Notes under the pieces: model-generated
Told to the model about the DNA's origin: nothing
Database searches by the model: none
What the model saw: only the letters and a program-made list of their open reading frames with translations
In this document: positions 22,862 to 57,701 of the stretch, piece after piece
Position numbering within the stretch: the first letter of the stretch is position 1
Layout of the letters: each line of letters begins with the position of its first letter
Source: Armatimonadota bacterium
GTDB lineage: Bacteria; Vulcanimicrobiota; JACPDS01; JBDRKI01
DNA: 64,000 nt
Direction: 5' to 3'
NCBI GenBank assembly: GCA_043814095.1
Contig: JBDRKI010000075.1
Coordinates: 424-64,423, forward strand
Translations under genes and position numbers: made by a program

Positions 22862-22941
22862 AAAATACTCCTTTTGGTAGCATTTTTCACTAAAAATTAC
22901 CCCACTTGACCTATATCCGTATACGCGGGGGGGGGTATAAT
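22862..22941 (+). promoter_or_regulatory. Conserved promoter module for family copy 1: AAAATACTCCTTTTGG motif, TTGACC box, G9 tract, TATAAT
   Basis: Motif 22862-22877, TTGACC 22906-22911, poly-G 22927-22935 (9 G), TATAAT 22936-22941. The same module lies upstream of the 25082 and 39879 genes. The 57595(-) copy keeps only the poly-G tract and TATAAT. Confidence 0.45.
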
Positions 22942-23033
22942 ATAGATGGGAAGAGGAAACAAGGTTTCTTACAACTGATATTTTATGGTAAAAAAGCCAT
23001 TAAATAAAATAAAAAGAACGGAGGTTAACCAAG

Positions 23034-23507
23034 GTGAAAAAACTACTTATAGCGCTTGTAGCGATAGCATTTCTGACAACAGCGGCATTTGCCGGGTCAA
23101 CTGACACACAGACTGTGTATTATGAGATTGATGCAATTAATGAACTTGTTTTTGGCGATGATACAACCTTAACAATGGACACTGCAACTGCAGGGGATGA
23201 ACCTTTTCACGATTTCAAATATCCTACCTATAACATTACTACTAACGAAGCTGCTAAAAAATTAACTGCTTCAATTAACGCAACAATGCCGAATCGTGTA
23301 TACTTCAGAGTAAAGGCAGAAGCACCAACCGGCGCTAGCAGTACCGGCTTACAATATATGAACACAACTGCCAAAAATCTTGTAACCGGTATTGAAACCG
23401 TAGTAGAGTCCGGTATAACTTATACCTTAAATACCTATGCATATGCTGATGCCGGTCTACCGCCTGATGGTTCAAGAGTCATAACCTTCACATTATGTGA
23501 CGAATAA
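23034..23507 (+). CDS. Small secreted protein, variable-core family copy 1 (157 aa)
   Basis: GTG start after a GGAGG RBS. Sec signal with AFA|GS cleavage site. Conserved STDTQTVYYEIDAINE N-terminus and LPPDGSRVITFTLCDE C-terminus shared with three paralogs. Divergent middle. Confidence 0.7.
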   Translation: MKKLLIALVAIAFLTTAAFAGSTDTQTVYYEIDAINELVFGDDTTLTMDTATAGDEPFHDFKYPTYNITTNEAAKKLTASINATMPNRVYFRVKAEAPTGASSTGLQYMNTTAKNLVTGIETVVESGITYTLNTYAYADAGLPPDGSRVITFTLCDE

Positions 23508-23533
23508 ACAGATATTTTAAGTTAGTGTTGAAA

Positions 23534-23560
23534 AAGCATACTCATGCGGTATGCTTTTTT
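23534..23560. terminator. Rho-independent terminator (AAGCATAC-loop-GTATGCTT plus T-run), bidirectional, shared with the convergent ATPase gene
   Basis: Perfect 8-bp stem followed by TTTTTT. An A-run precedes it on the other strand. Confidence 0.6.
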
Positions 23561-24816
23561 ATATCCTGTGCCGCGGCAAAAATCTCCCACGGATATAAAG
23601 ATTTAATTCTTTCATCTTCGCCGGAAGATAGTTTTTGCAGGGATATAACCCAGGCATCTTTCTGTTTGTATTTATCTATAAATGAGATGAGTGTTGACAG
23701 TGATTTTTGCGGATACGAAAGTTTGGCTTCTGCCGGGATTTTCTTAAAATTAAGATCCGCGATAAAATCTATCTCCGTTTTCTGTTTAGTCCTCCAGTAT
23801 TTTACAATCTCTTTTCCTAATGCCGAACGGATTGCGCAGTAAACAGCGTTTTCAAACAGCTCCCCGCTTACTTTATCCAGAAAAACGCCGTATTTTAAAA
23901 GATTGGCTATGCCTGTATCCTCAAAAAATATTTTAGACATTTTCGATATCTCGCTTCTTATATTCGTATAAAACGGCGGTACCATCTTTATAATGTAAGT
24001 GTTTTCCATAATAAAAAGATATTCTTCTATTGTCGGCCTTGATATCCCTATGGTAGAAGAAAGCTCCAGAACATTTAACAAAGATCCTGTTTTATCCGCC
24101 AAAACCCGGAGAAGTTTATTAAATCGGTTAACATCCCGTATATGACCTAAATCTCTTATATCTTTCTTAACATATGTATTTATAACTTGTTTAAGATATG
24201 TTTCTTTTGCATCGATAGATTTTTCAAGCACAATTTTGGGATACCCGCCGTAAATTAGGTACTCCTTAAAAAGACCGGACAGCTCCTTATTAACGGTTTC
24301 AGACTGAAAGGCTTTGAAAGATGACAGATCGTAATTAATTTCTTTAAACACCAGAAACTCTTCAAAATCCAGAGGATAAAGTTCGAAGTCTACGGTTCTT
24401 CCTGCCAGGGAATCTTTAAATTTACTTTTTACCTGAAAACTGGATGATCCGGAAACGATAATCTTCAACCATTCGTAATGATCGTGGAGTATTTTAAGAA
24501 GCGGGGATGGGTTATCCAGATATTGAATTTCATCTATCAGTATGTAAATTTTATTGTTTTTGTCTATATTCTTATGACTTTCAATATAGCTAACGACTTC
24601 TTTATGTCCCTTATTAAACATTTCTAAGAAAGTAAAATCTTCCAGATCAAAATAAAAAATATTATCAGGCAGAACTCCTTTCTCATTTATAAGCTTATCC
24701 CTTATAATTTTTAATAAAGTAGTTTTTCCCGTCTGCCTGGCGCCATGAATAACCAGAATCTCTCCTTTTTTCAAAAACTTATCGATAGGCTTTAATAATT
24801 TTCTCGGCTTATACAT
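23542..24816 (-). CDS. AAA+ superfamily ATPase, COG1373 / DUF4143-type
   Basis: Walker A (HGARQTGKTTLL), Walker B (ILIDEIQYL), about 420 aa with a C-terminal DUF4143-like region. Paralogs at 44101 and 55711. Confidence 0.8.
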   Translation of the reverse strand: MYKPRKLLKPIDKFLKKGEILVIHGARQTGKTTLLKIIRDKLINEKGVLPDNIFYFDLEDFTFLEMFNKGHKEVVSYIESHKNIDKNNKIYILIDEIQYLDNPSPLLKILHDHYEWLKIIVSGSSSFQVKSKFKDSLAGRTVDFELYPLDFEEFLVFKEINYDLSSFKAFQSETVNKELSGLFKEYLIYGGYPKIVLEKSIDAKETYLKQVINTYVKKDIRDLGHIRDVNRFNKLLRVLADKTGSLLNVLELSSTIGISRPTIEEYLFIMENTYIIKMVPPFYTNIRSEISKMSKIFFEDTGIANLLKYGVFLDKVSGELFENAVYCAIRSALGKEIVKYWRTKQKTEIDFIADLNFKKIPAEAKLSYPQKSLSTLISFIDKYKQKDAWVISLQKLSSGEDERIKSLYPWEIFAAAQDIKKHTA

Positions 24817-24906
24817 AATCTTATTTTACATTTTCCCTTACTTTTTGTCAAGTATGTTTATCATTTTATCTGTAAATATGCTATAAAGACGACTTAAAAA
24901 CCTGCC

Positions 24907-24988
24907 AAAATACTCCTTTTGACCTATGGTTTTAGTCGAAAATTGCCCCACTTGACCTATATCCGTATACGCGGGGGGGGGGTATAAT
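24907..24988 (+). promoter_or_regulatory. Conserved promoter module for family copy 2 (motif, TTGACC, G10 tract, TATAAT)
   Basis: Motif 24907-24924, TTGACC 24952-24957, poly-G 24973-24982 (10 G), TATAAT 24983-24988. Confidence 0.45.
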
Positions 24989-25081
24989 ATAGGTGGGAAG
25001 GGAGAAAGAGACTTCCCTCAATCAAGATTTAAAGGCATAAAAAGCCATTAAATAAAACTAAAAGAAAGGAGGTTAACCAAT

Positions 25082-25564
25082 GTGAAAAAACTACTGATAG
25101 CACTTGTAGTAATAGTATTTCTAGCAGGAGCGGCATTTGCGGCATCAACAGATACCCAGACTGTGTATTATGAGATTGACGCGATAAATGAAATTGATCT
25201 TGATGTGGGTAGCTTAACATTAACAGTTGATTCAGTAGCACAAGCTGGATATCAGCCGGCTTCGGATGTTACCGATTGGATGTTATATGGTATTACAACT
25301 AATTCCACGGGTAAAAAAATAACCGGTTCAATTAATGCAAATGTACCAAGTAATTGTCAGTTGGAGGTTCTTTTGGAAGCCCCTAGCAATGCTGTTTCTA
25401 CGGGATTGAAAAATTTATATTTTCAAGCGACAAATTTAGTAACCAGTATTGAAACGGTTGCAGAAGGAGATGTTAGGTATCGTTTCTATTGGCACGCAAA
25501 TGTTGAAGCCGGTCTCCCCCCAGACGGCTCAAGAGTCGTAACCTACACATTAACGGATGAATAA
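25082..25564 (+). CDS. Small secreted protein, variable-core family copy 2 (160 aa)
   Basis: GTG start, GGAGG RBS. Same conserved termini (…STDTQTVYYEIDAINE… / …LPPDGSRVVTYTLTDE). Confidence 0.7.
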   Translation: MKKLLIALVVIVFLAGAAFAASTDTQTVYYEIDAINEIDLDVGSLTLTVDSVAQAGYQPASDVTDWMLYGITTNSTGKKITGSINANVPSNCQLEVLLEAPSNAVSTGLKNLYFQATNLVTSIETVAEGDVRYRFYWHANVEAGLPPDGSRVVTYTLTDE

Positions 25565-25592
25565 ACAGATATTTTAAGTTAGTGTTAAAAAA

Positions 25593-25620
25593 ACAGCTCC
25601 TTTTTGAGCTGTTTTTTTTA
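25593..25620. terminator. Rho-independent terminator (ACAGCTC-loop-GAGCTGT plus T8), bidirectional with ssrA
   Basis: Stem-loop followed by TTTTTTTT. ssrA 3' end abuts on the opposite strand. Confidence 0.6.
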
Positions 25621-25621
25621 A

Positions 25622-25981
25622 CTTTCTTTTCTGGTGGAGGTGGAGGGATTCGAACCCTCGTCCGAAAAGGTCCCCACAGAGATTCTACAAGCTTATTCCA
25701 GATTTTGTTTCTCGGCGCCCCGGCTCCTCTGAACAGGATCCGCAGAACCCAGCCCCTTTAATTTCCCGCTTAGATAAGAGGCGGTTTCAAAACGGTAAGC
25801 CATCCTATTTTGGCGCCCTTATTTAGGCCGGCTGGCGGACCTAAGAGGACGTAGCCGCGTTAAGCGGCTAGTGCTAATTCGTTATCAGCGTTTATTTGTT
25901 TTCTAACTTTTTAACGAGCTGTCAGCAACTCGGCCTGCTGCCTCTGCCAAAACACATCCCGTCGAAACCTTGTCACCCCCC
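25622..25981 (-). ncRNA. ssrA: tmRNA (transfer-messenger RNA, SsrA)
   Basis: Minus-strand 5' end GGGGGTGACAAGGTTTCGACGGG. 3' end GGTTCGAATCCCTCCACCTCCACCA (T-arm plus CCA). Internal tag reading frame GCT GAT AAC GAA TTA GCA CTA GCC GCT TAA gives (A)ADNELALAA*. smpB lies 1.6 kb away. Confidence 0.8.
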
Positions 25982-26098
25982 ATGAGCATTATAGCATTTA
26001 AAATTACTTTAGGCAATGATAATTTTGATATCTAAAGGTAAAAATTCTTAATGGAAGAATATAGATTGTATCTTGTTATTTAAAAGGAGACGGTAAAT

Positions 26099-27313
26099 AT
26101 GCATCAATCTAAAAAGATATTGACTTATCTTGTTTTTATCTTTATTTTTCTTTTTCTTACGGTTAGTTGCGTCATGGCTAAAGAAAATATTTATTTTATG
26201 CGCAATAATGATATATGGCTGCTTGATTTAAACACTAATAATTACAAGCAGTTCACAAATTCGGGCAAGTATTACGACATAGTCCTCTCACCCGATAAAA
26301 CAAAAGCCGCTTATATAGTAAACCTGAAACGCAACGATATGGGCGGGTACTCGGGAATCCTTGCGGCATCAAATATAGACGGGACGGGTGAGATTATTTA
26401 TAAGGATATTTCGGTTTTCCCCGGACAGTTCTCCTGGAGTCCTGACGGAAAAAAAATAGCCGTGATACCTGAGACGGAAAAATTAACCATTCTTGATTAC
26501 GAAACAGGAAAAACAGCGCCTCTTGAAATTGAAGCGGAAAAAATATGGTACCCAAGCTGGTCGCCTGACGGCAAAAAGATAGCACTGCGCGCAAGTAAAA
26601 AAGGGATAGGCGATGTTTTAATATATAATACAGAAAGCAAAGATACCGTTTCCGCTTACGAATCACTATTTAAATGGGGTTCGGGATACTTTCCCGCGCC
26701 TGCAGACTGGACACCCGACAGCAAAAAAATAGTCTTTGAAATACAGCAGTTAAATAATGCCAATAATAAGCTGCTGGTAGAAGATCTGGAAACAGGTGAA
26801 GTGGAACAGATAGGTGAAGGATTCTCTCCCCTGTTCTCCTCAAAAGGCAATATGATTGCCTTTATAGCGTTCAAGCAGGATATGAATCAGGACAATATCG
26901 TTGATCTTATGGACGCCGATATTTACATTTACTATATGGACTCGAAAGAAACTAAAAACATAACTAAATCCCCTGAACCGGAAAGAATAGTTGCATGGGC
27001 TGAAGAGATAGATAAAATTCTTTATAACCAGATATACTACCAGGGCAATAAAGAAACGGCTAACCTGCATTCGGCTAATATAGCTTACGGCACAAACCAG
27101 GAGCTTATAAAAAACGCTTACGGGCTCGCATGGGAAGAAAAAGGAAAAGCCGTGGGCATAGCATCAACTACACCCGCAGCCGATAAAACAGAAACTCCGG
27201 AGAAAACCTCCAAAACAAAAGCAGCTACACTTCCTTTTATAATAATATTCTTACTGATTGCGGTACTGGCTGCAGCGGTTTTAATAATGCGCATCAAACG
27301 TAAAAACATGTAA
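26099..27313 (+). CDS. Secreted/anchored beta-propeller (TolB-like WD40 repeat) protein with C-terminal TM anchor
   Basis: Signal peptide. Repeated …SPDGKKIA… blades. C-terminal hydrophobic helix followed by basic residues. Confidence 0.6.
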   Translation: MHQSKKILTYLVFIFIFLFLTVSCVMAKENIYFMRNNDIWLLDLNTNNYKQFTNSGKYYDIVLSPDKTKAAYIVNLKRNDMGGYSGILAASNIDGTGEIIYKDISVFPGQFSWSPDGKKIAVIPETEKLTILDYETGKTAPLEIEAEKIWYPSWSPDGKKIALRASKKGIGDVLIYNTESKDTVSAYESLFKWGSGYFPAPADWTPDSKKIVFEIQQLNNANNKLLVEDLETGEVEQIGEGFSPLFSSKGNMIAFIAFKQDMNQDNIVDLMDADIYIYYMDSKETKNITKSPEPERIVAWAEEIDKILYNQIYYQGNKETANLHSANIAYGTNQELIKNAYGLAWEEKGKAVGIASTTPAADKTETPEKTSKTKAATLPFIIIFLLIAVLAAAVLIMRIKRKNM

Positions 27314-27334
27314 TGAAAAAGAGGATGTCCTCAA

Positions 27335-27583
27335 CTAAGCCACCTCAAACTGCTGTATTCCGATAAATTCCGGCAGGTGTCTTTTTTCATATAAGGTCAT
27401 TTCTTCTAAGCATAATTCCGCTACTTCTTTAAGATTTTTTTGCAGTTCCTCCAGGGTTTTTGCTTGAGTATGCGCCCCGCGGATCGAGGGAACAATTCCT
27501 ACATATAATCCAGATTCCGAGTCTTTTTCAATATATGCTGTTATTCTATGCATTGAAATTCTTCCACAAATTCTATTTAACAA
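27335..27583 (-). CDS. HicB-like (UPF0150) type II antitoxin-family protein. Apparently orphan.
   Basis: …YIEKDSESGLYVGIVPSIRGAHTQAKTLEEL… matches the HicB N-domain family. The likely true start is the internal ATG at 27553. No hicA-like ORF is seen adjacent. Confidence 0.5.
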   Translation of the reverse strand: MLNRICGRISMHRITAYIEKDSESGLYVGIVPSIRGAHTQAKTLEELQKNLKEVAELCLEEMTLYEKRHLPEFIGIQQFEVA

Positions 27584-27623
27584 AATTATATAAAATTCTC
27601 ACATGAAACACAATTGATAATTA

Positions 27624-28085
27624 TTACTCTTTTCCTTTATCCCTTACCGCTCTGTCAATTTCTCTTTGCTGTTCTTTCTTTTTTAAGCTTTCGCGCTTAT
27701 CGTATGTATGTTTTCCCTTGGCAAGGCCAAGCTCTACTTTGGCATAACCGCCCTTAAAATACATTTTTGTGGGCACCAGGGTAAGCCCTTTCTGCTGTGT
27801 CGCGCCTATAAGGCGCTTTATTTCTGACTTATTTAAAAGAAGCTTCCTTTTTCTTTTGGGATCGCGGTTGTAATAAGAGCCTTTCTCGTAAGGCGAGATA
27901 TGGCAGTTCACGAGATACGCTTCTCCTTTTGTAATCTGAGCGTAAGAATCCTGGAGGCTTACTTTTCCCTGGCGCAGGGACTTAACTTCAGTGCCTGCAA
28001 GAACAATGCCGGCCTCATACTTTTCTATGATATGATACTGGAAATACGCTTTTTTATTTGTGACTATATTTTTCTCGCCCTTCAC
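27624..28085 (-). CDS. smpB: SsrA-binding protein
   Basis: Conserved SmpB sequence (…NKKAYFQYHIIEKYEAGIVLAGTEVKSLR…). 153 aa. Confidence 0.9.
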   Translation of the reverse strand: MKGEKNIVTNKKAYFQYHIIEKYEAGIVLAGTEVKSLRQGKVSLQDSYAQITKGEAYLVNCHISPYEKGSYYNRDPKRKRKLLLNKSEIKRLIGATQQKGLTLVPTKMYFKGGYAKVELGLAKGKHTYDKRESLKKKEQQREIDRAVRDKGKE

Positions 28086-28087
28086 TC

Positions 28088-28498
28088 TTAACCTCTCTTA
28101 GCCGATTCGCTCACCTTAATAAAAGTTGATGTGCCTTCCGCCACAATTTCTCCTTTTGAATTTTCAATGCGGGCTTTGCCGAAAACAAGCTTCCCCTTTT
28201 CTTCGGTAATTGCGGCATATGCCTTTAAATTATCTCCTACCAAAGCGGGTTTTTTAAATTTAACTTCCAGCTTTCCGGTAACGCCGTAATAGCCTTTCCC
28301 GATGCACAGATAAGCCATTGCCTCATCAAGAAGGGTGCTTATTATCCCCCCGTGAACTACATCCTTAAATCCCTGATGAATTTTCAGAGGGGTAAAAGAA
28401 CAGGTTAAACTGTCTTTATCATGGTTAAACTTAAGTTTAAGACCTGCCGGGTTATCCGGCCCGCAGGCAAAACAGTATCTATCATCGGTAAAATCCAT
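28088..28498 (-). CDS. PaaI/YbgC-type hotdog-fold acyl-CoA thioesterase
   Basis: 136 aa. HGG motif (DVVHGGIISTLLDEAMA) typical of PaaI-family thioesterases. Confidence 0.7.
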   Translation of the reverse strand: MDFTDDRYCFACGPDNPAGLKLKFNHDKDSLTCSFTPLKIHQGFKDVVHGGIISTLLDEAMAYLCIGKGYYGVTGKLEVKFKKPALVGDNLKAYAAITEEKGKLVFGKARIENSKGEIVAEGTSTFIKVSESAKRG

Positions 28499-29111
28499 AT
28501 CTTTTCTCCAAATTTTGAAGTATCTGTCTTTTTAAATCTTTTTTTGTTCCGTTATTTTCTATTATGACATCTGCAAATCCTGATTTTTCCTTCAAGCTCA
28601 TCTGGGACCTTATCCTGAGGAGGGCACCGGCTCTGCTTACTTTATCTCTTTTCATAACCCTTTCAATCTGCCTTTTCTGAGAGCAGGTTATGAGCCAGAT
28701 ATCTTTAACAAGCTTGGTCTGCCCGGCCTCTATTAACAAAGGAGCCGCCAGCACCGTAATACCGGCTCCGGCGGCTTTAATCCGTTTTTTTATTTCCTTT
28801 ATTATTTCAGGATGGGTTATACTACTTAACCTGGCGAGCTTATTTTTATCTTTAAAAACTATTTTTGCCAATATTTTTTTATCAAGAGTCAGGTCTTTAT
28901 TTAAAATATTTCTGCCGAACTCTTTAGCTATTTTTAAGTTTAATCCGCTCCCTGCTTCTGTCAGGTCTTTATAAATCTCATCCGCGTTAATTACAAAGGC
29001 GCCTATAGAAGCAAATACGGAAGATGCCGTTTTTTTGCCTGTGGCAATTCCCCCCGTAAGCCCTATAACTATTTTACCGGCCTTCTGTTTTTTCTTCTTC
29101 GTTTTTCTCAT
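28482..29111 (-). CDS. coaE: Dephospho-CoA kinase
   Basis: P-loop GLTGGIATGKKT and the CoaE fold. 209 aa. Confidence 0.85.
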   Translation of the reverse strand: MRKTKKKKQKAGKIVIGLTGGIATGKKTASSVFASIGAFVINADEIYKDLTEAGSGLNLKIAKEFGRNILNKDLTLDKKILAKIVFKDKNKLARLSSITHPEIIKEIKKRIKAAGAGITVLAAPLLIEAGQTKLVKDIWLITCSQKRQIERVMKRDKVSRAGALLRIRSQMSLKEKSGFADVIIENNGTKKDLKRQILQNLEKRYGFYR

Positions 29112-30318: not shown

Positions 30319-30408
30319 ATAATAACAATTATAATCACTGTGAGAAAAATTGCAACTTGAGGCCTTAAAATCTTTATTTTAAGCCAATAATCCCTACTTC
30401 AAAGCGAG

Positions 30409-31854: not shown

Positions 31855-31855
31855 T

Positions 31856-39586: not shown

Positions 39587-39699
39587 AATACCTACTTTAT
39601 TTTACATTCCCCTCTTTCTATTTTAACTTAAAAAAGTCCTTTTTTATTAAATAATGATATATAAAAAATATGGTAGCAATGCAATATTTATAATTTATA

Positions 39700-39786
39700 G
39701 GTCAAAAATACTCCTTTTGACCCATAGTTTTAGCCGAAAATTACCCCATTTGACCTATATCCGTAAATGCACGGGGGGGGTATAAT
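39700..39786 (+). promoter_or_regulatory. Conserved promoter module for family copy 3 (palindromic GGTCAAAAATACTCCTTTTGACC, TTGACC, G8 tract, TATAAT)
   Basis: Motif 39700-39722, TTGACC 39750-39755, poly-G 39773-39780 (8 G), TATAAT 39781-39786. Confidence 0.45.
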
Positions 39787-39878: not shown

Positions 39879-40337
39879 GTGAAAAAACTACTGATAGCAC
39901 TTGTAGCAATTGTCTTTCTAGCAGGAGCGGCATTTGCAGGGTCAACAGATACTCAGACAATTTACTATGAGATTGATGCAATTAATGAGATTAGCTTTGA
40001 TACAAATATAACAATGACGGTTAATGCCGCAACAGCCGGTTCACAGCCAGCAGAAGTAAGTGTATGTTCTCTCGAATATAACATTACTACCAATGAAACC
40101 GGCAAGAAATTAACAGGCCAGCTTAATGCGAATATGCCGGGTAACACTACTCTTAAGGTTAATGTAGACGGCGGTGAAGTCGCATTATCAACCACCGCAA
40201 ATAATCTATACACTAATATTTCAACCATGGTAACAGCAGGCGACTGGTATTACAGCTTCTCTTTTCGAGCAACAGTCGCAGCCGGTCTCCCCCCAGACGG
40301 CTCAAGAGTCGTAACCTACACATTAACGGATGAATAA
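39879..40337 (+). CDS. Small secreted protein, variable-core family copy 3 (152 aa)
   Basis: GTG start, GGAGG RBS. Conserved termini (STDTQTIYYEIDAINE / LPPDGSRVVTYTLTDE). Confidence 0.7.
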   Translation: MKKLLIALVAIVFLAGAAFAGSTDTQTIYYEIDAINEISFDTNITMTVNAATAGSQPAEVSVCSLEYNITTNETGKKLTGQLNANMPGNTTLKVNVDGGEVALSTTANNLYTNISTMVTAGDWYYSFSFRATVAAGLPPDGSRVVTYTLTDE

Positions 40338-40364
40338 ACAGATATTTTAAGTTAGTGTTAAAAA

Positions 40365-40392
40365 AGACTGTTCGTTTTGAACAGTCTTTTTT
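40365..40392. terminator. Rho-independent terminator (GACTGTTC…GAACAGTC plus T-run)
   Basis: Stem-loop followed by TTTTTT directly after the conserved 3'UTR. Confidence 0.6.
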
Positions 40393-40430
40393 ATATAAAT
40401 CATACAAAATCAAAAAAAATTAATATGATC

Positions 40431-46589: not shown

Positions 46590-46592
46590 AAA

Positions 46593-49382: not shown

Positions 49383-49471
49383 AAACTTTTCTCTTTTTTT
49401 TATTTAAAAATCTTTGTTTTACAATATTTTCCCTGTATTTCCGATAAAAACCCCCGCATGTTTCTTTAATA

Positions 49472-49522
49472 GGTCAAACGGAGTATTTTTATATGCTTTT
49501 TTACAAAATACTCCGTTTGACC
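49472..49522. promoter_or_regulatory. Perfect 18-bp inverted repeat (GGTCAAACGGAGTATTTT, 15-nt spacer, AAAATACTCCGTTTGACC), a double copy of the shared upstream motif
   Basis: The arms are exact reverse complements. Each arm matches the motif found upstream of the small-protein family and the 53693 gene. Lies about 85 nt upstream of the 49606 start. Confidence 0.5.
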
Positions 49523-49605: not shown

Positions 49606-50580
49606 ATGAAAAAACAAATATTTTACGTATACCTGCTTATCTGTTTCGCTCTGCTAACCTTCGGCTGCGGGAGCGGCGGAGGAGGAGGCGGCGGCGGTGG
49701 CGGCGGCGGCACCTCCAGTGGAGGAAGCAGTACGCCCACTCCTACGCCCACGGCAACCGCGGAACCCGCAAATAATGGATCATTAATAGTATTATCAAAA
49801 GCTGACGGCTCCTTTTACGCGGTGCTTGCCGGTGTATGCGATTATCCCGGCTCGGTAAATGACTTAAACTATACCGCGAATGACGCCATAGATTTATATA
49901 ACTGCCTTAACGGCAGCAGTTTCTGGAGCGGGGTAACAGTATCAATAGAAAACGATATACACGTAACTTACGCGAAAATCCAGAACGCCGTGGCAACCGC
50001 AGCGGCGAATATCGCCGATGACGGCTTATTCGTATTCCTGTTCTCCGGACACGGTACAAATTCCGGAGGCATAGGATACCTGCTTCCTTATGACGGGATA
50101 AGCTCCTCATCGTGCAGAATAAGCGAAACTACCCTGCGCGTATGGCTTGACAGTTTTCCAACAAATTCAAAAAAATACATACTTATAGATTCCTGCTACA
50201 GCGGAGAATTTGTTGACATGTCGCCAAGGGGAGAAGAAGTCCTAACTTCCAAGTTTGTAGCAATAGAAGGATCTGATATTGCTTTCAGCAGGGATACGGC
50301 AAGATCCCTGGTCGGCGCGAACAATACTTATGTTATGGCTTCTTCCGCGGGAGACGAAGTAAGCTATGAATCAAGCCTGCTCCAGAACGGCGTATTCGGA
50401 TATTATGTGGCACAGGGGCTCGGCACGGGCGCTATAATAGGTCCGGCAGACGCGAACTTGAGCAATACTATAACCGCGGAAGAGATGACCGTATATGTAC
50501 CGCCTCTTGTAACGATTTATGTGGCAGGCCAGCATCCTCAATCTTATGATAATGTAATAGGCGATTTAAGAATAAAATAA
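49606..50580 (+). CDS. Caspase-like (peptidase C14, clan CD) domain lipoprotein with poly-Gly tether
   Basis: Signal peptide ending …LTFGC then G13. Caspase His (FLFSGHG) and Cys (LIDSCYSG) motifs. C-terminus …YDNVIGDLRIK shared with paralogs. Confidence 0.7.
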   Translation: MKKQIFYVYLLICFALLTFGCGSGGGGGGGGGGGGTSSGGSSTPTPTPTATAEPANNGSLIVLSKADGSFYAVLAGVCDYPGSVNDLNYTANDAIDLYNCLNGSSFWSGVTVSIENDIHVTYAKIQNAVATAAANIADDGLFVFLFSGHGTNSGGIGYLLPYDGISSSSCRISETTLRVWLDSFPTNSKKYILIDSCYSGEFVDMSPRGEEVLTSKFVAIEGSDIAFSRDTARSLVGANNTYVMASSAGDEVSYESSLLQNGVFGYYVAQGLGTGAIIGPADANLSNTITAEEMTVYVPPLVTIYVAGQHPQSYDNVIGDLRIK

Positions 50581-50692
50581 TACACCTCGACCCGCCCGCA
50601 GATAAAGGCTCTGTGTAAAAACAGGGCTTTTATCCATTTAACCTCAAAGGAACTTTGCTCTGCTTGTAAAATTAATCCTATAATTAAACGCT

Positions 50693-51538
50693 TTGGAGAT
50701 TTTTATGAAAAAATTTGTTTTATTTATGATGTGCTCTTTGTTTGTCTTGGCTTTTTCTTTGCATGGCACGGGACACTGCAAGCTGTTAATGCCCGAAACG
50801 GAAAAAAACATATTGGGCGCGGCTTATTTTAAAGACGGCAAAGTAAACATAGCTATTGCAAATAACTCCGATGAAAAACAATATTTAAAAATATCTTACG
50901 GATATTACGAACTTAATCCGGTAAAAGTCCATACCAAAGATATCCTCGTAGGCTCAAAAGAGGTTATGCTTCTTGCTTTTAACAAAGCTTACGCGAAAAC
51001 AAAAACAGGACAGAAAAAAACATGCGACACCGTTTTTATATACAATGACTCCGGCGAACTGCTGAATCTTATTAACGTTCAGGGGTTGACCGCCGGAACG
51101 AACTACTTTAAATGCTACTCATATTTTATGAATGATTATAAAATGTGCAGGATACTGCTTAATTTAAACGCATTAAAAAATGAAAATTATATATATATCG
51201 TTGATAAAAATCCTTTATCTTCATCCGGTGAAGCCGATATAACCCTGCAGGCATCGGGATTTATGGGATTGAACCAGATAAACTCCCGGGATCTTTATAA
51301 TATTGATATAGATAAAGATTATATAGAACAGATCTGCAAAGAATCATCCGGAAGCTGTCTTTTCTACGGTGCCGGCTATATGTATTTAAGAATAACTACA
51401 GGAGAGCTGGAAAAAGCAGTTCTTGTATCCCCTAAAATAAAAAAATACCATTTCGGAACCCAGGGAGTAACTTCCGGGAATATATCCACGCCTCAGATAC
51501 TATTTTACCCGCAGAAATATAAAGTAAAAGAATTATAA
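50693..51538 (+). CDS. Hypothetical secreted protein
   Basis: Signal peptide. Embedded within the caspase-like cluster. No recognisable motif. Confidence 0.5.
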   Translation: MEIFMKKFVLFMMCSLFVLAFSLHGTGHCKLLMPETEKNILGAAYFKDGKVNIAIANNSDEKQYLKISYGYYELNPVKVHTKDILVGSKEVMLLAFNKAYAKTKTGQKKTCDTVFIYNDSGELLNLINVQGLTAGTNYFKCYSYFMNDYKMCRILLNLNALKNENYIYIVDKNPLSSSGEADITLQASGFMGLNQINSRDLYNIDIDKDYIEQICKESSGSCLFYGAGYMYLRITTGELEKAVLVSPKIKKYHFGTQGVTSGNISTPQILFYPQKYKVKEL

Positions 51539-51665
51539 CTTGATTTTTTAAATTTTATTATCTTACTTTTTTATTTTATTTATATGGAAATAAAACCTGT
51601 TTTGTGTTACAATGTTATATGATGTAATTAAGCCGCTCTTATAATAACCGATAAGAGGTTTTTTT

Positions 51666-53471
51666 ATGAGAAAAATAAGCCCTTATATATTTTTAATTAT
51701 ACCTTTTTTAATAATTGTATTATTCTCTTCTTTAAGCTGTTCCGGAGGAGGAGGGGGAGGCGTAACCTACGACACAAGCACCATATCTTTTGATCTCCCC
51801 ACCCCAATAGCCGCAGGAACTCCCGAACCGGCAAATAAAGGCGAATTAATATACATATCAAAAAATGACGGATCGGCATATGCGGTTCTTGCCGGTGTAA
51901 CCGATTACCCTGAAGGAGAAAATGATTTAAATTTCACCGCTAATGACGCGATAAATATGATGAACTCATTATCCGGGAACGATTTCTGGTCAACTTCAAC
52001 CGTAACACGGTACAGCGATGTACACGTCACAAAATCGATGATACAGAATGCAATACAAACAGCCCAGGCCGCTCTTAATAACGGCGGATTGTTTATATTT
52101 ATGTATTCCGGTCACGGCGCCGCATCCGGGAGCACGGGATACCTTGTCCCGTTTAACGGTGTTTACTCAGAATCAGAATGCATAAGTGAGGGCGAGATGC
52201 AGGGCTGGTTAAGCAATTTTGACGCGTCCATAAAAAAATGCATACTCTTAGACGCGTGCTTCAGCGGCAGTTTCATAAATAAAAGAACAGATTCTAAAAC
52301 TAAAAATATGGTACCCAAATTCATAAAGCTGGATCATTCCGATACTTATTACGAAAATGATAAATACGCAAAGTCCCTGCTCGGTATCCCGAACTGTTAT
52401 GTTATGACATCTTCTAGAGGAAGCGAAGTAAGTTATGAAGACTATAACGTACAGGGCGGCGTATTTGTGCATTATATCCACGAAGCACTCGGTGACGGCA
52501 ACAGGATGGGTCCTGCCGATTCAAACGGGGATATCATAATAACGGAAGAAGATCTGACCAATTACGTGCCCTCACAGGTACGCAACTATACAGAATGGGC
52601 GCAGAACCCGCAGGTTTACGATAACTATACAGGATCATTCACCGTTAAATCAGGAAGCAAGGGTACAATTATCACAATAGCCAAAGCCGATAGTTCGGCT
52701 TATGCTGTGCTTGTCGGGGTACGTGATTATGAGAACGGCAGAACCAATGACTTAAGCTTTACCGTAAACGATGCCGTTGATTTAAAAGATTCTCTCCTAA
52801 ACAGCACTTTCTGGAGCGGAGCGACAGTATCAATCCAGAATAATATCCAGGTTAACAAATCAATGATAGAAACTGCCGTTAATAACGCCAAAAATAATAT
52901 AGCAAACAGCGGCCTGTTTGTATTTATGTTTTCCGGACACGGCACCAATTCAAATGGATTAGGATATTTAATACCCTACGGGGGAACCGGAGGCGCGGCA
53001 AACTGTATCAGTGAAAATGATTTAAGAAGCTGGTTGAATAATTTTAATTCTTCCGTTAAAAAATATGTTCTTTTAGATTCATGTTACAGCGGATATTTCA
53101 TAGATAAAAGCTTAAGCACCGGTTTAATACCAAAAACCATAGCAATAGATAATAATTATAACTCATTTTACAGCAGTGAAAAATTCGCTAAAACTCTTGT
53201 TGGGCTTTCAAACTGCTGTGCCATGACATCCTCAAAGGGGAGCGAAGTAAGCTATGAAGACATCCCCCTGCAGAACGGCGTATTCGGATATTATGTGGCG
53301 CAAGCTTTAGGCACAGGCGCCACAATAGGTCCGGCTGACACTAACTCAAGCGGCAGTATAACAGCCCTGGAGATGGGAAATTATGTCTCCGTGTATGTAT
53401 CAAGCTATACATCGGGGGTGCAGAACCCTCAAACTTATGATAATTATTCAGGCGAGTTAAGGGTAAAGTAG
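51666..53471 (+). CDS. Tandem double caspase-like (C14) domain lipoprotein
   Basis: Signal plus Cys plus G7. Two complete His/Cys dyads (FMYSGHG…LLDACFSG; FMFSGHG…LLDSCYSG). Ends …YDNYSGELRVK. Confidence 0.7.
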   Translation: MRKISPYIFLIIPFLIIVLFSSLSCSGGGGGGVTYDTSTISFDLPTPIAAGTPEPANKGELIYISKNDGSAYAVLAGVTDYPEGENDLNFTANDAINMMNSLSGNDFWSTSTVTRYSDVHVTKSMIQNAIQTAQAALNNGGLFIFMYSGHGAASGSTGYLVPFNGVYSESECISEGEMQGWLSNFDASIKKCILLDACFSGSFINKRTDSKTKNMVPKFIKLDHSDTYYENDKYAKSLLGIPNCYVMTSSRGSEVSYEDYNVQGGVFVHYIHEALGDGNRMGPADSNGDIIITEEDLTNYVPSQVRNYTEWAQNPQVYDNYTGSFTVKSGSKGTIITIAKADSSAYAVLVGVRDYENGRTNDLSFTVNDAVDLKDSLLNSTFWSGATVSIQNNIQVNKSMIETAVNNAKNNIANSGLFVFMFSGHGTNSNGLGYLIPYGGTGGAANCISENDLRSWLNNFNSSVKKYVLLDSCYSGYFIDKSLSTGLIPKTIAIDNNYNSFYSSEKFAKTLVGLSNCCAMTSSKGSEVSYEDIPLQNGVFGYYVAQALGTGATIGPADTNSSGSITALEMGNYVSVYVSSYTSGVQNPQTYDNYSGELRVK

Positions 53472-53592
53472 CCAAAATCCTGTCAAGTACCTGATTAACC
53501 ATAAACCGCTTCATTTCAGAGGCGGTTTTTTTATTTCCTTATTTCAAGGCATTATTTTGTCGAACATATTTTTGTAGTTCTTTTGGAACATT

Positions 53593-53613
53593 CAAAAATA
53601 CTCCTTTTGGTCC
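53593..53613 (+). promoter_or_regulatory. Shared upstream motif copy (CAAAAATACTCCTTTTGGTCC), about 80 nt upstream of the 53693 gene
   Basis: 18/20 identity with the motif at 22862, 24907, 39700 and 49505. Confidence 0.4.
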
Positions 53614-53692
53614 CTCAAAATAGGTCTTTTGATGGATATTTTTATAATCTTCCCGGGCTTATAATATTAATAGGAAGCCGTAAAAAAAGGAG

Positions 53693-54751
53693 ATGATTGT
53701 TATGAACCTCTCCCAAAACATAAAAAAAACACTTAAAAGCTCAATTTTTTTAGGTTTAGCTGCGATCGCCGCCCTTATAATCACCGCTCTCGTAGGATGC
53801 GGTGGCGGCGGAGGAGGAACAGGCGGCGGCGGCGGAGTATCTGCCGGAAACCCGCCCGCCATACTTTTACCGGATTACACCCCTCCCCCTGCGCCTGATA
53901 CGCACAGCGATGACCCGCCCCCGCCCGAAGAAACTTCAACAAAAGCATTTGTCATACTCGTAGGCATGGCAGACTACCCCGGGACCATAAACGACCTGCG
54001 TTATACCGCTAAAGACGCTCAAGATGTTTACAACTGCCTGATATCTTCAAGCGTATGGGGCGAAGCCACATTCAAAGTCTTTTTAAATTCCAACGCGACA
54101 AAAAGCGCTATCGCAAACGCTTTTTCCGAAGCCAAAAACACTTTAGATGATGACGGTATATTCTTATTCTACTATTCCGGGCACGGTACTAATTCGGGCA
54201 CAACTGGCTATATAATTCCTTACGATGCTCTTACATGGGAAGGATTTATAAACCAGTCCAACCTCATAAGCGGTGATGATTTAAACTCTTACTTAAGCCA
54301 GCTTCCCGAAACCGTAAAGAAATATGTAGCATCTGATTCATGCCACAGCGGATACCTTATAGGCGCGAGATCCGAATTTGATACTGCTGAAAATAAAGTT
54401 AAATTTGTTCCCATGGCCGATTCCAATCCCGGCTACAGCGAAGAAGAATTCGCCAGATCCATTGTGGGAACTTCAAACTGCTATGTAATGACTTCCTCAA
54501 GCGGAACTGAATTAAGCTGGGAAACCAGCATACTGCAGGCGGGAGTATTCAGTTACTATCTCTGCCAGGGACTCGGCAACGGCAGCGCCCTGGGCGCAGG
54601 AGATATTAACTCCGACAGCACAATAACAGCTGAAGAATTATCCGTCTATGTTCCCCCGGCCGTAAGCAATTATATTTCAAGTCATATAGAAGGGTATACA
54701 CAGACTCCTCAAAGTTATGATAACTTTGAAGGCGAGTTAAGGGTAAAATAA
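53693..54751 (+). CDS. Caspase-like (C14) domain lipoprotein with Gly/Pro-rich tether
   Basis: Lipobox LVGC plus GGGGGGTGGGGG. Motifs YYSGHG / SDSCHSG. C-terminal YDNFEGELRVK. Confidence 0.7.
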   Translation: MIVMNLSQNIKKTLKSSIFLGLAAIAALIITALVGCGGGGGGTGGGGGVSAGNPPAILLPDYTPPPAPDTHSDDPPPPEETSTKAFVILVGMADYPGTINDLRYTAKDAQDVYNCLISSSVWGEATFKVFLNSNATKSAIANAFSEAKNTLDDDGIFLFYYSGHGTNSGTTGYIIPYDALTWEGFINQSNLISGDDLNSYLSQLPETVKKYVASDSCHSGYLIGARSEFDTAENKVKFVPMADSNPGYSEEEFARSIVGTSNCYVMTSSSGTELSWETSILQAGVFSYYLCQGLGNGSALGAGDINSDSTITAEELSVYVPPAVSNYISSHIEGYTQTPQSYDNFEGELRVK

Positions 54752-54949
54752 AAAAGTGCGGATTCCTTGGTCTTTGTTTTGGTGTTGCCGCGCAGCCCCG
54801 CAAGAGATGCGGGACTGTGTATTGAAGAGAAAAGTCAGAGATAACCTAATGAAACAGGGATGTGATCCACGACACATCCCTGTTTCATTATATTAAAGAC
54901 ATGATTATAAAGAAGGACACCTTTATATATAATAGAAATAATTTTAATT

Positions 54950-55714
54950 ATGGCAAAAATTAAAATAAAAAACAGAACAATTGATATTGACGCGGTAATC
55001 TTTGATAAAGACGGGACATTAATTGAAATATTTCCCATGCTTCACGCCGTATTAAAAGAAAGAATCAAAGAACTGCTTAAATTTATTCCAAAAAAAATAA
55101 TACCTGACTACAAAAAAGGCGTGGGCATAAACCTTAAAACAGGCACGATAAACCCCTACGGCCCGCTCGCGTGCGCCCCGCGCCATGAAGAGATAATTGT
55201 CTGCGCCCAGATACTCTTCCGGCACGGATACCCCTACCATGAAGCAAGAAATATCGCGAAAAAAGCATATGATAAAGCGGATTTCGGGATGGATCTTAAA
55301 AAGGGGCTTAAAATTATACCCGGAGCTGACAAACTTCTCAAAGAACTTAAAAAGAAGAAAATAAAGATATTTATTGTTACAAGCGATTCGGTATGCAGGA
55401 CAAACAAAATGTTAAAAATCCTGAATCTGTCAAAATACATTGATCATGTAGTTGGCTCCGATTCTGTCCAAAACTGCAAACCCGAGCCCGACGCGGTAAA
55501 TTTCATCTTGAAAAAATACAACTTAAAACCGGATAAGGTCGCCATGTGCGGGGATTCCGTTATAGATATGCAGATGGGTAAAAACGCAAAGGTAAGATAT
55601 AATATAGCGGTATTAACAGGTACCAGCACTAAAAAAGAACTGAAAAAATATACAGGTTTTGTGTTAAGCTCCGTAAAGGAATTAAAACTGCCGCTACCTA
55701 TCCATTATTCTTGA
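54950..55714 (+). CDS. HAD-superfamily hydrolase (phosphoglycolate phosphatase-like)
   Basis: Motif I (AVIFDKDGTL), motif III/IV (…GDSVIDMQMG…). 254 aa. Confidence 0.7.
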   Translation: MAKIKIKNRTIDIDAVIFDKDGTLIEIFPMLHAVLKERIKELLKFIPKKIIPDYKKGVGINLKTGTINPYGPLACAPRHEEIIVCAQILFRHGYPYHEARNIAKKAYDKADFGMDLKKGLKIIPGADKLLKELKKKKIKIFIVTSDSVCRTNKMLKILNLSKYIDHVVGSDSVQNCKPEPDAVNFILKKYNLKPDKVAMCGDSVIDMQMGKNAKVRYNIAVLTGTSTKKELKKYTGFVLSSVKELKLPLPIHYS

Positions 55715-56880
55715 CAAATCCTGTTTTTTGTATTAAAATTGGGAGTATGAATCCCAAAATTAAGTATATTAAGCGCGATTTAGAGCCAATATTAAAATCG
55801 CATCTCAACAAGGGTAAAATTATTGTTTTATACGGTGCCCGTCAGGTCGGTAAAACCACACTTTTGCTAAATCTTTTTCCCGAAAAAGAGGAAAAAACAA
55901 TTTATCTTTCCTGCGATCAGAGCCGCATCCAAGAACAACTAATACCCGATGCTTTACAGTTAAAGAAAATAATCGGTAATCATCAAAATATAATTTTTGA
56001 TGAAGCGCAGTATTTAAACAATCCGGGACTTATTTTAAAAGTTCTAATAGACAATTTTCCGGATAGAAATATAATTGCCTCGGGCTCATCTTCTTTTGAC
56101 CTGGCGCATAAAATAAGCGAACCGCTTACGGGAAGGCATTTTAAATTCATTCTTTTTCCTTTATCTGTGCGGGAGATATATAAAGAAATTCCGGCTACAG
56201 ACAGGAAATTTTACATGGAACAATCTTTTTTGTTCGGCACATATCCTGAGATTTTCATGCTTATCACCGCGCAAGAGAAAATAACGCATTTACAGACGCT
56301 TGTCGACGCCTATCTTTACAGGGACATCCTTGCTTTTAATCTCGTAAAAAATACTCAAAAAGTAAGAGAACTAATCCTGTCATTGGCTTTGCAAATAGGC
56401 AGTGAGGTTTCCTATTCAGAACTGGCAAATCATATAAGTGTTGACAGAAAAACTGTTGAGCATTATCTGGATCTTCTTGAGAAATCCTTCGTCATTTTCA
56501 GGTTATACGGTTTTAGCCGAAATTTGCGAAGCGAAATTAACAGAAAAATTAAAATATATTTCTATGACACGGGAGTGAGAAACGCTCTTATAAATAATTT
56601 TAATGAGATGGATTTACGCACCGACGGCGGCGCTATTTTTGAAAATTTTGTAGTTTCAGAAAAAATAAAACAAGAAACAAATGCTCCTCAAAAAACAAAT
56701 TTTTATTTCTGGCGCACTTATGACCAGAAAGAAGTTGACATTATTTCCGAGAAAAACGGGGTAATTATCGCCGGAGAAATTAAGCTTAAAAAAACAAAAA
56801 AAATGCCCGGACTTTCAGCTTTTAAAAGGCAATACCCGCAGGCAAAAACAGAATTAATAACAATGGATTCTTTGCTGTGA
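55711..56880 (+). CDS. AAA+ superfamily ATPase, COG1373 / DUF4143-type (paralog)
   Basis: Walker A YGARQVGKTTLL, Walker B IIFDEAQYL. 389 aa. Confidence 0.8.
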   Translation: MTNPVFCIKIGSMNPKIKYIKRDLEPILKSHLNKGKIIVLYGARQVGKTTLLLNLFPEKEEKTIYLSCDQSRIQEQLIPDALQLKKIIGNHQNIIFDEAQYLNNPGLILKVLIDNFPDRNIIASGSSSFDLAHKISEPLTGRHFKFILFPLSVREIYKEIPATDRKFYMEQSFLFGTYPEIFMLITAQEKITHLQTLVDAYLYRDILAFNLVKNTQKVRELILSLALQIGSEVSYSELANHISVDRKTVEHYLDLLEKSFVIFRLYGFSRNLRSEINRKIKIYFYDTGVRNALINNFNEMDLRTDGGAIFENFVVSEKIKQETNAPQKTNFYFWRTYDQKEVDIISEKNGVIIAGEIKLKKTKKMPGLSAFKRQYPQAKTELITMDSLL

Positions 56881-57030
56881 CATACTTACGGGGTTAAAAT
56901 CCCATGCGTTTTATGATGTGCGAGTTTCTTGATTCAACGACACCCAACTCGCAGATCGCTCCAAGCATATTTGGAACCTTCCGTTCTGTGAAGGGAACAG
57001 TTTATATGATTAACGGGATAGATTAATAAA

Positions 57031-57062
57031 AACCTTATTCGTTTCAACGAATAAGGTTTTAT
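57031..57062. terminator. Bidirectional terminator hairpin (AACCTTATTCG-TTTCAA-CGAATAAGGTT)
   Basis: Perfect 11-bp stem with a T-run on the plus strand and an A-run on the minus strand. Confidence 0.5.
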
Positions 57063-57120
57063 GCTATCAATATTCTTGACCGTAGGGGCGGGTCGCGACC
57101 TGCCCTACATGCTATTTCAT

Positions 57121-57595
57121 TTATTCATCCGTCAGGGTGAAGGTTATGACTCTTGAGCCGTCCGGCGAAAGACCGGCTTCGACAATAGCACTTAAATAAA
57201 TGGTATAATATGATTCTGCTGCATTTGTTTCAATGCTGGTTATTGCGCTTTGAGCGGTGGTATTTAAAGTTACTATGCCGGGGCAAGAACAGCCACTCGG
57301 TGCAGACAAATACACCTTAAGAGTTACTCCGCTTGGCATAGTTGAATTAATTGCCGCAGTTATTTTTTTTTGCTGTTCCGTTTGTGGTAAGATAGTAATC
57401 TTGCACGCCTGTGCTATCACCGGCCGGTCCCGTACCAGCCCCTCCATGATCAATTGTTAAGGTTACATCCGCGCCAAATGCAATCTCATTAATCGCATCT
57501 ATTTCATAATAGATTGTCTGGGTATCTGTTGATGCCGCAAATGCTACCGCTGTTAGAAATGCTATAGCTACAAGTGCTATAAGTAGTTTTTTCAC
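57121..57595 (-). pseudogene. Small secreted protein family copy 4, frameshifted within an A9 homopolymer
   Basis: Two overlapping minus-strand ORFs (57347-57595 and 57121-57453). They carry the family N-terminus (…STDTQTIYYEIDAINE…) and C-terminus (…SPDGSRVITFTLTDE) respectively. The junction is an A9 tract (plus-strand T9 at 57372-57380). With A8 the frame would read …TAKKITAAINSTMPSG…, as in the paralogs (KKITGSIN / KKLTASIN). Confidence 0.7.
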
Positions 57596-57686
57596 GGTAG
57601 TTAACCTCCTTTCTTGTTGTTTTATTTAATGGCTTTTTGCCATGAAATATCAGTTATAAAAAACCTTGTTTCCTCTTCCCACCTAT

Positions 57687-57701
57687 ATTATACCCCCCCC
57701 C
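57687..57701 (-). promoter_or_regulatory. TATAAT preceded by a G9 tract (minus strand): promoter of family copy 4
   Basis: Plus-strand ATTATA then C9 (57693-57701). The reverse complement gives G9-TATAAT-ATAGGTGGGAAGAGGAAACAAGG…, the same as the other copies. The region upstream of it has diverged. Confidence 0.4.

Follow-up and report, generated by a model that had tools for sequence, protein, structure and literature searches.

Introduction

What is encoded by short, scattered genes whose protein products agree at both ends and differ in between, and what keeps them so? This question is raised by the 64,000-nt stretch of DNA analyzed here (the window), which makes up most of a 66,035-bp contig (locus tags ABIH00_) of a metagenome-assembled genome (MAG) labeled "Armatimonadota bacterium" by NCBI. 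Four homologous genes in it, numbered copies 1–4, encode small secreted proteins, and an initial annotation had taken them for a four-membered family of variable surface or secreted proteins driven by gene conversion. We propose here, with moderate confidence, that they are orphan major-subunit genes of an undescribed, widespread pilus-like surface-fiber system, and that each is switched individually by slippage in a promoter tract.

Results and Discussion

The four genes were confirmed at their places by the open reading frame (ORF) listing and by direct reading (Table 1), and Sec-type secretion of their products is supported. Copies 1–3 are intact and fall within the 152–160 amino acids (aa) initially given for all four, whereas copy 4 is frameshifted and reads as overlapping 82-aa and 110-aa ORFs. 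Membership of the family extends well beyond the window. Twenty annotated paralogues, copies 1–3 among them, are found on at least 13 contigs of the MAG at 52–62% identity to copy 2 and, with copy 4, bring the family to at least 21 members; a genome holding only the four copies, which the initial annotation had named as a ground for giving up its reading, is thus not what we find. The one outcome of a scan for further copies in contig collections that do not include this MAG was a spurious match to a signal peptide in Alistipes, and a lineage-specific peptide gave no confirmed match in JGI metagenomes.

The family proteins match no Pfam or NCBIfam model at curated cutoff, even when searching to E ≤ 10, and a family profile has no match among PDB sequences. 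An AlphaFold2 model of the copy 2 protein, built on a 20-sequence alignment, has a mean predicted local distance difference test score (pLDDT) of 85.8 and comprises a signal helix followed by an all-β sandwich, the mature protein being about 135 aa long. When this model was compared with the PDB by Foldseek, FimA type-1 pilins in self-complemented, monomeric form took the first seven places (E from 8e-7 to 3e-5, probability 1.00, template modeling score about 0.5), ahead of CfaB, CS17 and CooA. Pilins dominate both of two independent structure searches, and almost all matches are donor-strand-complemented fiber subunits. As the scores of these matches are moderate, they support a fold class and not homology. 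The initial guess of a fimbrial-like β-sandwich is in this way backed by a confident model and two independent structure searches, and the fold class of the monomer model fits an immunoglobulin (Ig)-like pilin, whose N-terminal strand would act as a donor strand between subunits.

The central part of the protein, initially described as hypervariable, is not uniformly so. It averages 50% identity and contains conserved islands (TLT, AGSxP, ITTNxTGKKIT, NMP and TTAQ..V.SIETVA), and its variation is concentrated in β4–5, β7, the 99–116 loop and β10. Within the MAG the first mature strand (TQTVYYEIDAI, β1) has an entropy of 0.14 bits and the last strand (β11) one of 0.60 bits, versus 1.67 and 1.46 bits in 224 outside relatives, whereas β4–5 (2.43 versus 2.04 bits), β7 (2.05 versus 1.85 bits) and β10 (2.16 versus 1.89 bits) show that the termini are frozen specifically in this genome, with cores as diverse as the whole family. 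The signal peptide stands at 0.65 bits within the MAG versus 2.50 bits across the family. In a Nei–Gojobori analysis of synonymous differences (pS) and nonsynonymous divergence (dN), the N-terminal 37 codons gave pS 0.37–0.55 and dN 0.04–0.08, the last 20 codons (copy 2/3 pair left out) pS 0.36–0.60 and dN 0.07–0.18, and the core pS 0.63–0.78, which is saturated, and dN 0.51–0.64. In the termini, the combination of high pS and low dN identifies purifying selection on the protein as the main cause of their conservation. Most simply, this is read as selection on strands needed for assembly, and termini frozen to this degree would be expected if all paralogues had to fit one assembly apparatus and each other.

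Directly 5′ of TATAAT in copies 1–4 stand runs of nine, ten, eight and nine G, which the initial annotation had missed. They are the only G/C runs of eight or more in the window, and their length varies between copies although the flanks are near-identical. There is no −35 hexamer 16–18 nt from TATAAT, by which a canonical σ70 promoter is ruled out. TTGACC is found 24, 25 and 25 nt upstream of TATAAT in copies 1–3, and the homopolymer tract thus lies between an upstream element and the −10 box, as in promoters of the Bordetella fim type; copy 4 has neither TTGACC nor further upstream homology, nor the palindromic box described below. In Bordetella, the promoters of unlinked fim genes contain a C-stretch that separates the activator region from the −10 box; the distance between these two governs expression, the threshold being reported as 22 bases, and changing the fimX tract by one base shifts transcription about 4-fold (PMC1891110). 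By analogy, the TTGACC box here is likely an activator or sigma contact, and slipped-strand changes in the G8–10 run between this box and the −10 box would turn individual copies on or off, like the C-stretch of Bordetella fim2/fim3/fimX. The A run at the invariant Lys-Lys codons may be a second slippage-prone site, at which copy 4 would have been caught out of frame. Its A9 is the only homopolymer of nine or more in the window besides the promoter G runs, and the 13 A8/T8 runs inside intact ORFs of the window are all read in frame, which speaks against homopolymer errors being widespread in the assembly. The promoter pattern gave no match in JGI metagenomes. The G tract is a lineage-specific feature, with a probable role in switching.

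An exhaustive profile search of 1.84 billion cluster representatives gave 1,493 relatives (each again representing a cluster at 50% identity). Nearly all are about 160 aa long, and 837 have E ≤ 1e-10. The named ones belong to MAGs of Zixibacteria, Nitrospirae and Verrucomicrobiota, and all are annotated as "hypothetical" and have no Pfam domain. In seven of seven long contexts, from MAGs of these three groups and from metagenome contigs, the subunit gene heads a conserved cassette in the order subunit gene(s), a second small secreted protein (146–201 aa), a 259–285-aa protein and a 922–942-aa protein. Gene 2 of the cassette forms its own conserved family; its candidacy as a subunit paralogue was rejected (hhalign probability 1.2%). 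A profile of four gene-3 orthologues matches EfmWxLIP1 of Enterococcus faecium (PDB 9i25/9i1y, E = 1.8e-5 over about 160 residues), and gene 3 also has a weak Pfam WxLIP_HBD match and faint PapD_N/ASH Ig-like matches (E 0.018–0.1). A WxLIP (DUF916+DUF3324) partner is therefore present in the relatives' cassettes, whereas a PapD-like chaperone (PF00345/PF02753) is absent from the window and represented in the relatives' partner by the faint PapD_N match only. WxLIP proteins are described as a tandem pair of Ig-like domains, and a hairpin of theirs is predicted to be inserted next to the partner's N-terminus (PMC10599100). The gene-4 product has N-terminal Ig-like domains, weak central Porin_4/BBP2/OMP_b-brl matches and two C-terminal CarboxypepD_reg/prealbumin-like domains, and its architecture may be usher-like. 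None of four gene-4 orthologues matches Usher (PF00577), and a homology search with the profile of this ~930-aa protein returned only the query. Subunits, a two-Ig partner and a large outer-membrane protein together parallel a chaperone-usher operon but fail the sequence-level tests for that pathway.

The relatives also vary in arrangement and surroundings. At locus L010 (GCA_964400685.1, 697–12204), 11 tandem family members on both strands surround two sets of the assembly genes, and the intergenic regions between some neighbors are near-identical; this is an independent, clustered expansion without homopolymer tracts. In the Nitrospirae MAG GCA_016215115.1 (locus L007), a perfect σ54 −24/−12 box (TGGCAT-N5-TTGC, ~9850–9870) precedes the subunit gene, with a response-regulator/σ54-activator gene immediately upstream, and other relatives have response regulators or LuxR-type regulators alongside. 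The differing boxes and flanking regulators indicate that regulation of the family differs between lineages.

Alternative Explanations

Several observations weigh against our proposal. With regard to the fiber, no Pfam pilin, PapD or Usher model reached threshold, homologues of cassette genes 2–4 are absent from the window, a single-sequence structure model of the gene-4 protein has a pLDDT of 28.6, and the WxLIP homology points to surface complexes not known as fibers. With regard to the switch, the TTGACC-to-TATAAT distance is near constant at 24–25 nt, copy 3 offsetting its G8 with two extra non-G bases, and could equally be a fixed spacer. The tract-length differences (8–10 G) are known between paralogues only, from consensus MAG sequence, and a comparable run is present in none of about 17 subunit genes of distant relatives. 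The copy 4 frameshift, finally, may simply reflect decay, or an error of assembly.

The points on switching would be accounted for by an ordinary expanded family with a fixed strong promoter, an explanation that we regard as possible though doubtful. The G run would then be a static spacer or an extended −10-type element, copy 4 a decaying pseudogene or an assembly error, and the intact copies co-expressed or conventionally regulated, for instance via the palindromic box. Besides the constant promoter distance, the recurrence of this box upstream of unrelated caspase-like lipoprotein genes and the response regulators, σ54 activator and LuxR-type regulators flanking the relatives would agree with such control. 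However, slippage is an inherent tendency of homopolymers of 8–10 G, none of which occurs in the window except in these promoters, where run length varies between near-identical flanks; the sole coding homopolymer of nine or more breaks copy 4 while the 13 shorter A8/T8 runs stay in frame; and in Bordetella fimX a single base in the tract suffices for the ~4-fold transcription change noted above.

The homology of gene 3 leads to a different alternative, a nonfibrous surface-display complex that in diderms would correspond to the WxL/WxLIP (Csc) clusters of Gram-positive bacteria, and which we consider unlikely. Here the subunits would be monomeric surface- or matrix-binding modules, held by the WxLIP-like partner through strand insertion and exported or anchored by the large outer-membrane protein, and the paralogues would differ in ligand specificity and not in fiber antigenicity. 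The EfmWxLIP1 and WxLIP_HBD matches speak for this, as does a cassette that, as in WxL clusters, combines two different small secreted proteins with a WxLIP-like protein. The subunits themselves are less accommodating: the ITWTLTDE ending of some paralogues resembles W-x-L, but W occupies this C-terminal motif position in only three of 20 paralogues (F or Y in the others), the first WxL motif is absent, and no Pfam WxL match is obtained even at E ≤ 10. Lower Foldseek matches include carbohydrate-binding modules (probability 0.5–0.66), but no WxL chain is among the structural matches, in which pilins dominate both searches, and the WxLIP-like protein, on inspection of the L004 sequence, apparently has no C-terminal membrane helix.

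Recombination between copies, to which the initial annotation had attributed the conserved ends, has indeed taken place. An 86-nt tract is the same in copies 2 and 3, which agree in it at 36 polymorphic sites in a row (permutation p < 0.0002), and the C-terminal pS of this pair is 0.06 versus 0.36–0.60 in other pairs. Paralogues P0002 (copy 3) and P0016 are mosaic, with cores 91% identical and with signal peptides (65%) and C-termini (74%) both under the family averages; over the 19 paralogues analyzed, identity in one segment has essentially no correlation with identity in another (Spearman −0.02 to 0.35). These exchanges would be central to classic gene-conversion antigenic variation, in which the flanks serve mainly as recombination anchors and variation arises chiefly by cassette exchange, a scheme that we likewise judge unlikely. 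The lower pS of the termini relative to the core would fit it, as would the uniform signal peptide within the MAG, a hint that the 5′ module has evolved partly in concert. Yet terminal synonymous sites are 36–60% different, so that homogenization is infrequent and not the main cause of the conserved ends, and the synonymous saturation of the cores marks the copies as old and independently evolving. Segmental transfer is the one trait shared with silent-cassette systems of the pilE/pilS type; in place of a single expression site fed by silent cassettes, which the initial comparison with classic variable families implied, each copy seen is a complete expression unit with its own promoter, ribosome-binding site, start and terminator, and there is no promoterless or partial silent cassette within the window. 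Recombination between copies looks real but occasional.

Very little weight is given to the idea that the copies are cargo of a small mobile element whose transposition or integration would explain their dispersal by tRNA and transfer-messenger RNA (tmRNA) genes, for although copies 2 and 4 lie close to such genes and copies 1 and 4 have AAA_14/DUF4143 ATPase genes as neighbors, there are no terminal inverted repeats at the module ends, no flanking direct repeats were seen in the alignment, none of nine neighboring genes scanned encodes a transposase or integrase, the other neighbors are housekeeping genes, and homology stops at the promoter box and the 3′ untranslated region (UTR) box.

Noncoding Modules and Neighboring Genes

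In an alignment of the DNA of the four copies, the TATAAT box and ~92-nt leader are 74–90% identical (88–90% for the leader among copies 1, 3 and 4), the first 111 nt of the coding sequence (CDS), encoding the signal peptide and about 17 mature residues, 82–86%, the CDS core 45–54% and the final 60 CDS nt 76–97%. The ~90-nt 5′ UTR and GTG start initially assigned to all four copies are indeed common to them, with GTG 9 nt past GGAGG in each. As for the 3′ UTR and terminator initially said to be common to the plus-strand copies, the 28–29-nt 3′UTR box is 93–97% identical in copies 1–3, but their terminator stems differ in sequence. The downstream region of the minus-strand copy was rightly called different: copy 4 is 27% identical over the box and has an unrelated terminator. 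An intrinsic terminator is nevertheless present at each of the four copies. Since the 5′ leader and the 3′UTR box are more conserved than adjacent synonymous sites, they are functionally constrained and not merely homogenized.

The hairpins of the leader have modest support (z −1.6 to −2.3, almost no covariation), and a riboswitch or other known RNA was rejected for want of an Rfam match and on the same z-scores and covariation. In all four leaders a 5′-terminal GGUGG can pair with ACC(A/U) just 3′ of the Shine–Dalgarno sequence (22945–23036 and equivalents), and this pairing may be a 5′ stabilizer or a translational control element. The first hairpin of the copy 2 leader is swapped for a different, stronger one (GGGAAG...CUUCCC). 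At the 3′ side, the stop codon of the ATPase gene that converges on copy 1 overlaps with the copy 1 terminator, which may thus be bidirectional, and between the stop codon and terminator of copy 4 a GC-rich imperfect palindrome, GTAGGGCAGGTCGCGACCCGCCCCTAC (57079–57105, minus strand), takes the place of the 3′UTR box.

Table 1. Coordinates of the four genes and their associated elements in the window.
Feature	Position	Strand	Details
Copy 1 palindromic box	22859–22878	+	CCAAAA-ATACTCC-TTTTGG, ~65 nt 5′ of TATAAT
Copy 1 promoter core	22906–22941	+	TTGACC 22906–22911, 15-nt spacer, G9 22927–22935, TATAAT 22936–22941
Copy 1 leader	22942–23033	+	~85–92 nt; two small hairpins, GGAGG, 9 nt, GTG; z −1.7; no Rfam match
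Copy 1 CDS	23034–23507	+	157 aa, ABIH00_07795, P0003
Copy 1 3′UTR box and intrinsic terminator	23508–23560	+	box ACAGATATTTTAAGTTAGTGTTGAAAAA; from alignment, regional identity
Copy 2 upstream box and promoter	24904–24988	+	TTGACC 24952–24957, G10 24973–24982, TATAAT 24983–24988
Copy 2 CDS	25082–25564	+	160 aa, ABIH00_07805, P0001; protein used for structure model
Copy 2 3′UTR box and terminator	25565–25618	+	13-bp stem at 25587–25618
Copy 3 palindromic box and promoter	39696–39786	+	palindromic box 39696–39726, TTGACC 39750–39755, G8 39773–39780, TATAAT 39781–39786
Copy 3 CDS	39879–40337	+	152 aa, ABIH00_07880, P0002
Recombination tract	40283–40366	+	~86 nt, identical to copy 2 (~25510–25593); last 55 CDS nt and 3′UTR box
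Copy 3 terminator	40359–40393	+	15-bp stem
Copy 4 terminator, own and unrelated	57029–57060	−	15-bp stem
Copy 4 CDS, frameshifted	57121–57595	−	one-A deletion gives 157-aa protein
Copy 4 A9 run	57363–57371	−	at invariant Lys-Lys codons; +1 frameshift site; in-frame length A8
Copy 4 G run and TATAAT	57687–57701	−	G9 57693–57701, TATAAT 57687–57692

About 65 nt upstream of TATAAT, copies 1–3 carry a palindromic box, (GG)TCAAAA-ATACTCC-TTTTGA(CC), from which the 14-mer AAATACTCCTTTTG occurs 10 times in the window at up to two mismatches versus 1.4 expected. The box AAAATACTCC(T/G)TTTGACC forms a perfect inverted pair (49463–49520) upstream of the gene for a 324-aa caspase-like lipoprotein (49606–50580), stands singly (53593–53609) upstream of the gene for its 352-aa paralogue (53693–54751), and is found with one mismatch at 13540–13553 on the minus strand. 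Its presence before caspase-like lipoprotein genes as well hints at a common regulator, and the box may be a shared operator of a surface-protein regulon. These lipoprotein genes belong to a second local paralogue family (49606–54751) of three putative Peptidase_C14 (caspase-like) lipoproteins of 324, 601 (internally duplicated) and 352 aa, with Gly-rich linkers past the lipobox Cys and a common C-terminal motif, QxPQxYDN..GxLRVK.

The copies themselves are stand-alone units amid ordinary genes, namely those for CdaA, spermidine synthase, tmRNA, tRNA-Pro and two AAA_14/DUF4143 ATPases. Downstream of copy 2, at 68 nt and convergent with it, is the tmRNA gene (25632–25980, minus strand, tag ADNELALAA), and tRNA-Pro(CGG) (57839–57917, plus strand) lies about 140 nt upstream of the copy 4 promoter and is divergent; no integrase or repeats were found near either. 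The ATPase genes are those at 23542–24816 (minus strand), by copy 1, and 55711–56880 (plus strand), by copy 4. A 457-aa ORF beside tRNA-Pro (57919–59292, minus strand) has no Pfam match at E ≤ 0.001 and contains a Rossmann-like GxGxxG motif near its N-terminus.

Proposed Mechanism and Significance

In the mechanism that we propose, each gene would give rise to a Sec-exported β-sandwich protein resembling chaperone-usher pilins. The first mature strand, TQTVYYEIDAI, with its alternating hydrophobic residues, is the putative donor strand, and the AGLPxDGSRVITFTLTDE end would provide both a strand and the groove edge that receives the donor strand of a neighboring subunit, such that polymerization would proceed by donor-strand exchange. 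The ~270-aa two-Ig WxLIP-related protein is a candidate periplasmic chaperone and the ~930-aa protein a candidate usher-like exporter, and counterparts of both would be encoded elsewhere in this MAG. Fit to this shared machinery and to each other would freeze the terminal strands and leave three exposed strand/loop regions free to diverge. The subunit gene has been multiplied here to at least 21 dispersed monocistronic units of common promoter, leader and terminator design, with occasional intercopy recombination reshuffling segments. The net effect would be a population with varying fiber surfaces on a constant assembly scaffold.

The assembly system behind these genes may well represent a new class. 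The fullest form of this idea, which we put forward tentatively, is a new class of donor-strand-assembled pili in environmental, assumed-diderm lineages (Zixibacteria, Nitrospirae, Verrucomicrobiota and this MAG) that is kin to WxL/WxLIP and not to PapD/usher, with at least 21 poly-G-switched genes in the present genome, a repertoire that phages or grazers may have selected for. Should the subunits polymerize, this would be a new and phylogenetically broad fiber-assembly system that current domain databases miss entirely, and the Firmicutes WxLIP proteins would gain a counterpart with a plausible chaperone role. Frozen assembly strands, diverse cores and per-gene slippage tracts constitute a textbook design for surface variation. 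To our knowledge, such designs are documented almost only in host-associated pathogens. Their occurrence in an environmental MAG would widen the known range of contingency loci and, if our proposal is right, mean that pathogen-style surface variation operates in a free-living uncultivated bacterium.

Comparison with Known Systems

The multigene vlp family of Mycoplasma hyorhinis has a conserved 5′ noncoding region and signal peptide followed by a divergent mature region, and each vlp gene has its own promoter with a poly-A tract between the −35 and −10 boxes, allowing independent on/off switching. The Vlp proteins are lipoproteins with tandem repeats encoded by clustered genes, whereas the present genes are dispersed, carry poly-G and encode pilin-like sandwiches. 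With Neisseria pilE/pilS and Borrelia vlsE our family shares conserved ends, a variable core and segment transfer between copies; it differs in consisting of full expression units with occasional conversion, in contrast to one expression site served by promoterless silent cassettes.

With respect to structure, the chaperone-usher pilins (FimA; class 5 CooA/CfaB/CS17; archaic CsuA/B and CupE) are likewise Sec-exported proteins of about 135–150 aa in mature form, with a conserved N-terminal strand of alternating hydrophobics and a conserved C-terminal strand, and the operon logic of subunit(s), two-Ig partner and large outer-membrane protein recurs in the relatives of our family. Sequence identity to these pilins is, however, only 9–17%, no Fimbrial/SCPU, PapD_N/C or Usher Pfam match is obtained at threshold, the partner is WxLIP-like, and the large protein has CarboxypepD_reg-type domains. 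The Firmicutes WxL/WxLIP (DUF916-DUF3324) clusters are connected to the cassette by gene 3, a detectable homologue of EfmWxLIP1, and by the combination of small secreted β-proteins with a two-Ig partner predicted to complement them by strand insertion (PMC10599100). Neither Pfam nor motifs place the present subunits among the WxL-domain proteins, as two Trp-x-Leu motifs in the sense of the published definition (PMC9772566) are not found in them, and the LPxTG/peptidoglycan anchoring of the Firmicutes clusters contrasts with a ~930-aa protein with weak outer-membrane-barrel matches in lineages assumed to be diderm.

With respect to genetic organization, Bordetella fim2/fim3/fimX/fimN are likewise unlinked monocistronic genes for alternative major subunits of one chaperone-usher-type fiber, with a common promoter architecture and conserved termini, and the activator-to-(−10) distance lies beyond 22 bases there (PMC1891110) and at 24–25 nt here. 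The two differ in number (3–4 copies versus at least 21), in tract (C7–22 versus G8–10 on the coding strand) and in that our family has no fimbrial Pfam match and its presumed machinery is not a PapD/usher pair; moreover, Bordetella is a host-adapted pathogen with switching, whereas here switching is proposed from the sequence of an uncultivated environmental bacterium. The best-supported reading is a set of at least 21 pilin-like orphan genes for major subunits of a four-gene surface-assembly system that is widespread and undescribed, each probably switched by its own promoter homopolymer; in kind, the family is a variant of phase-variable fimbrial subunit families with chaperone-usher-like assembly.

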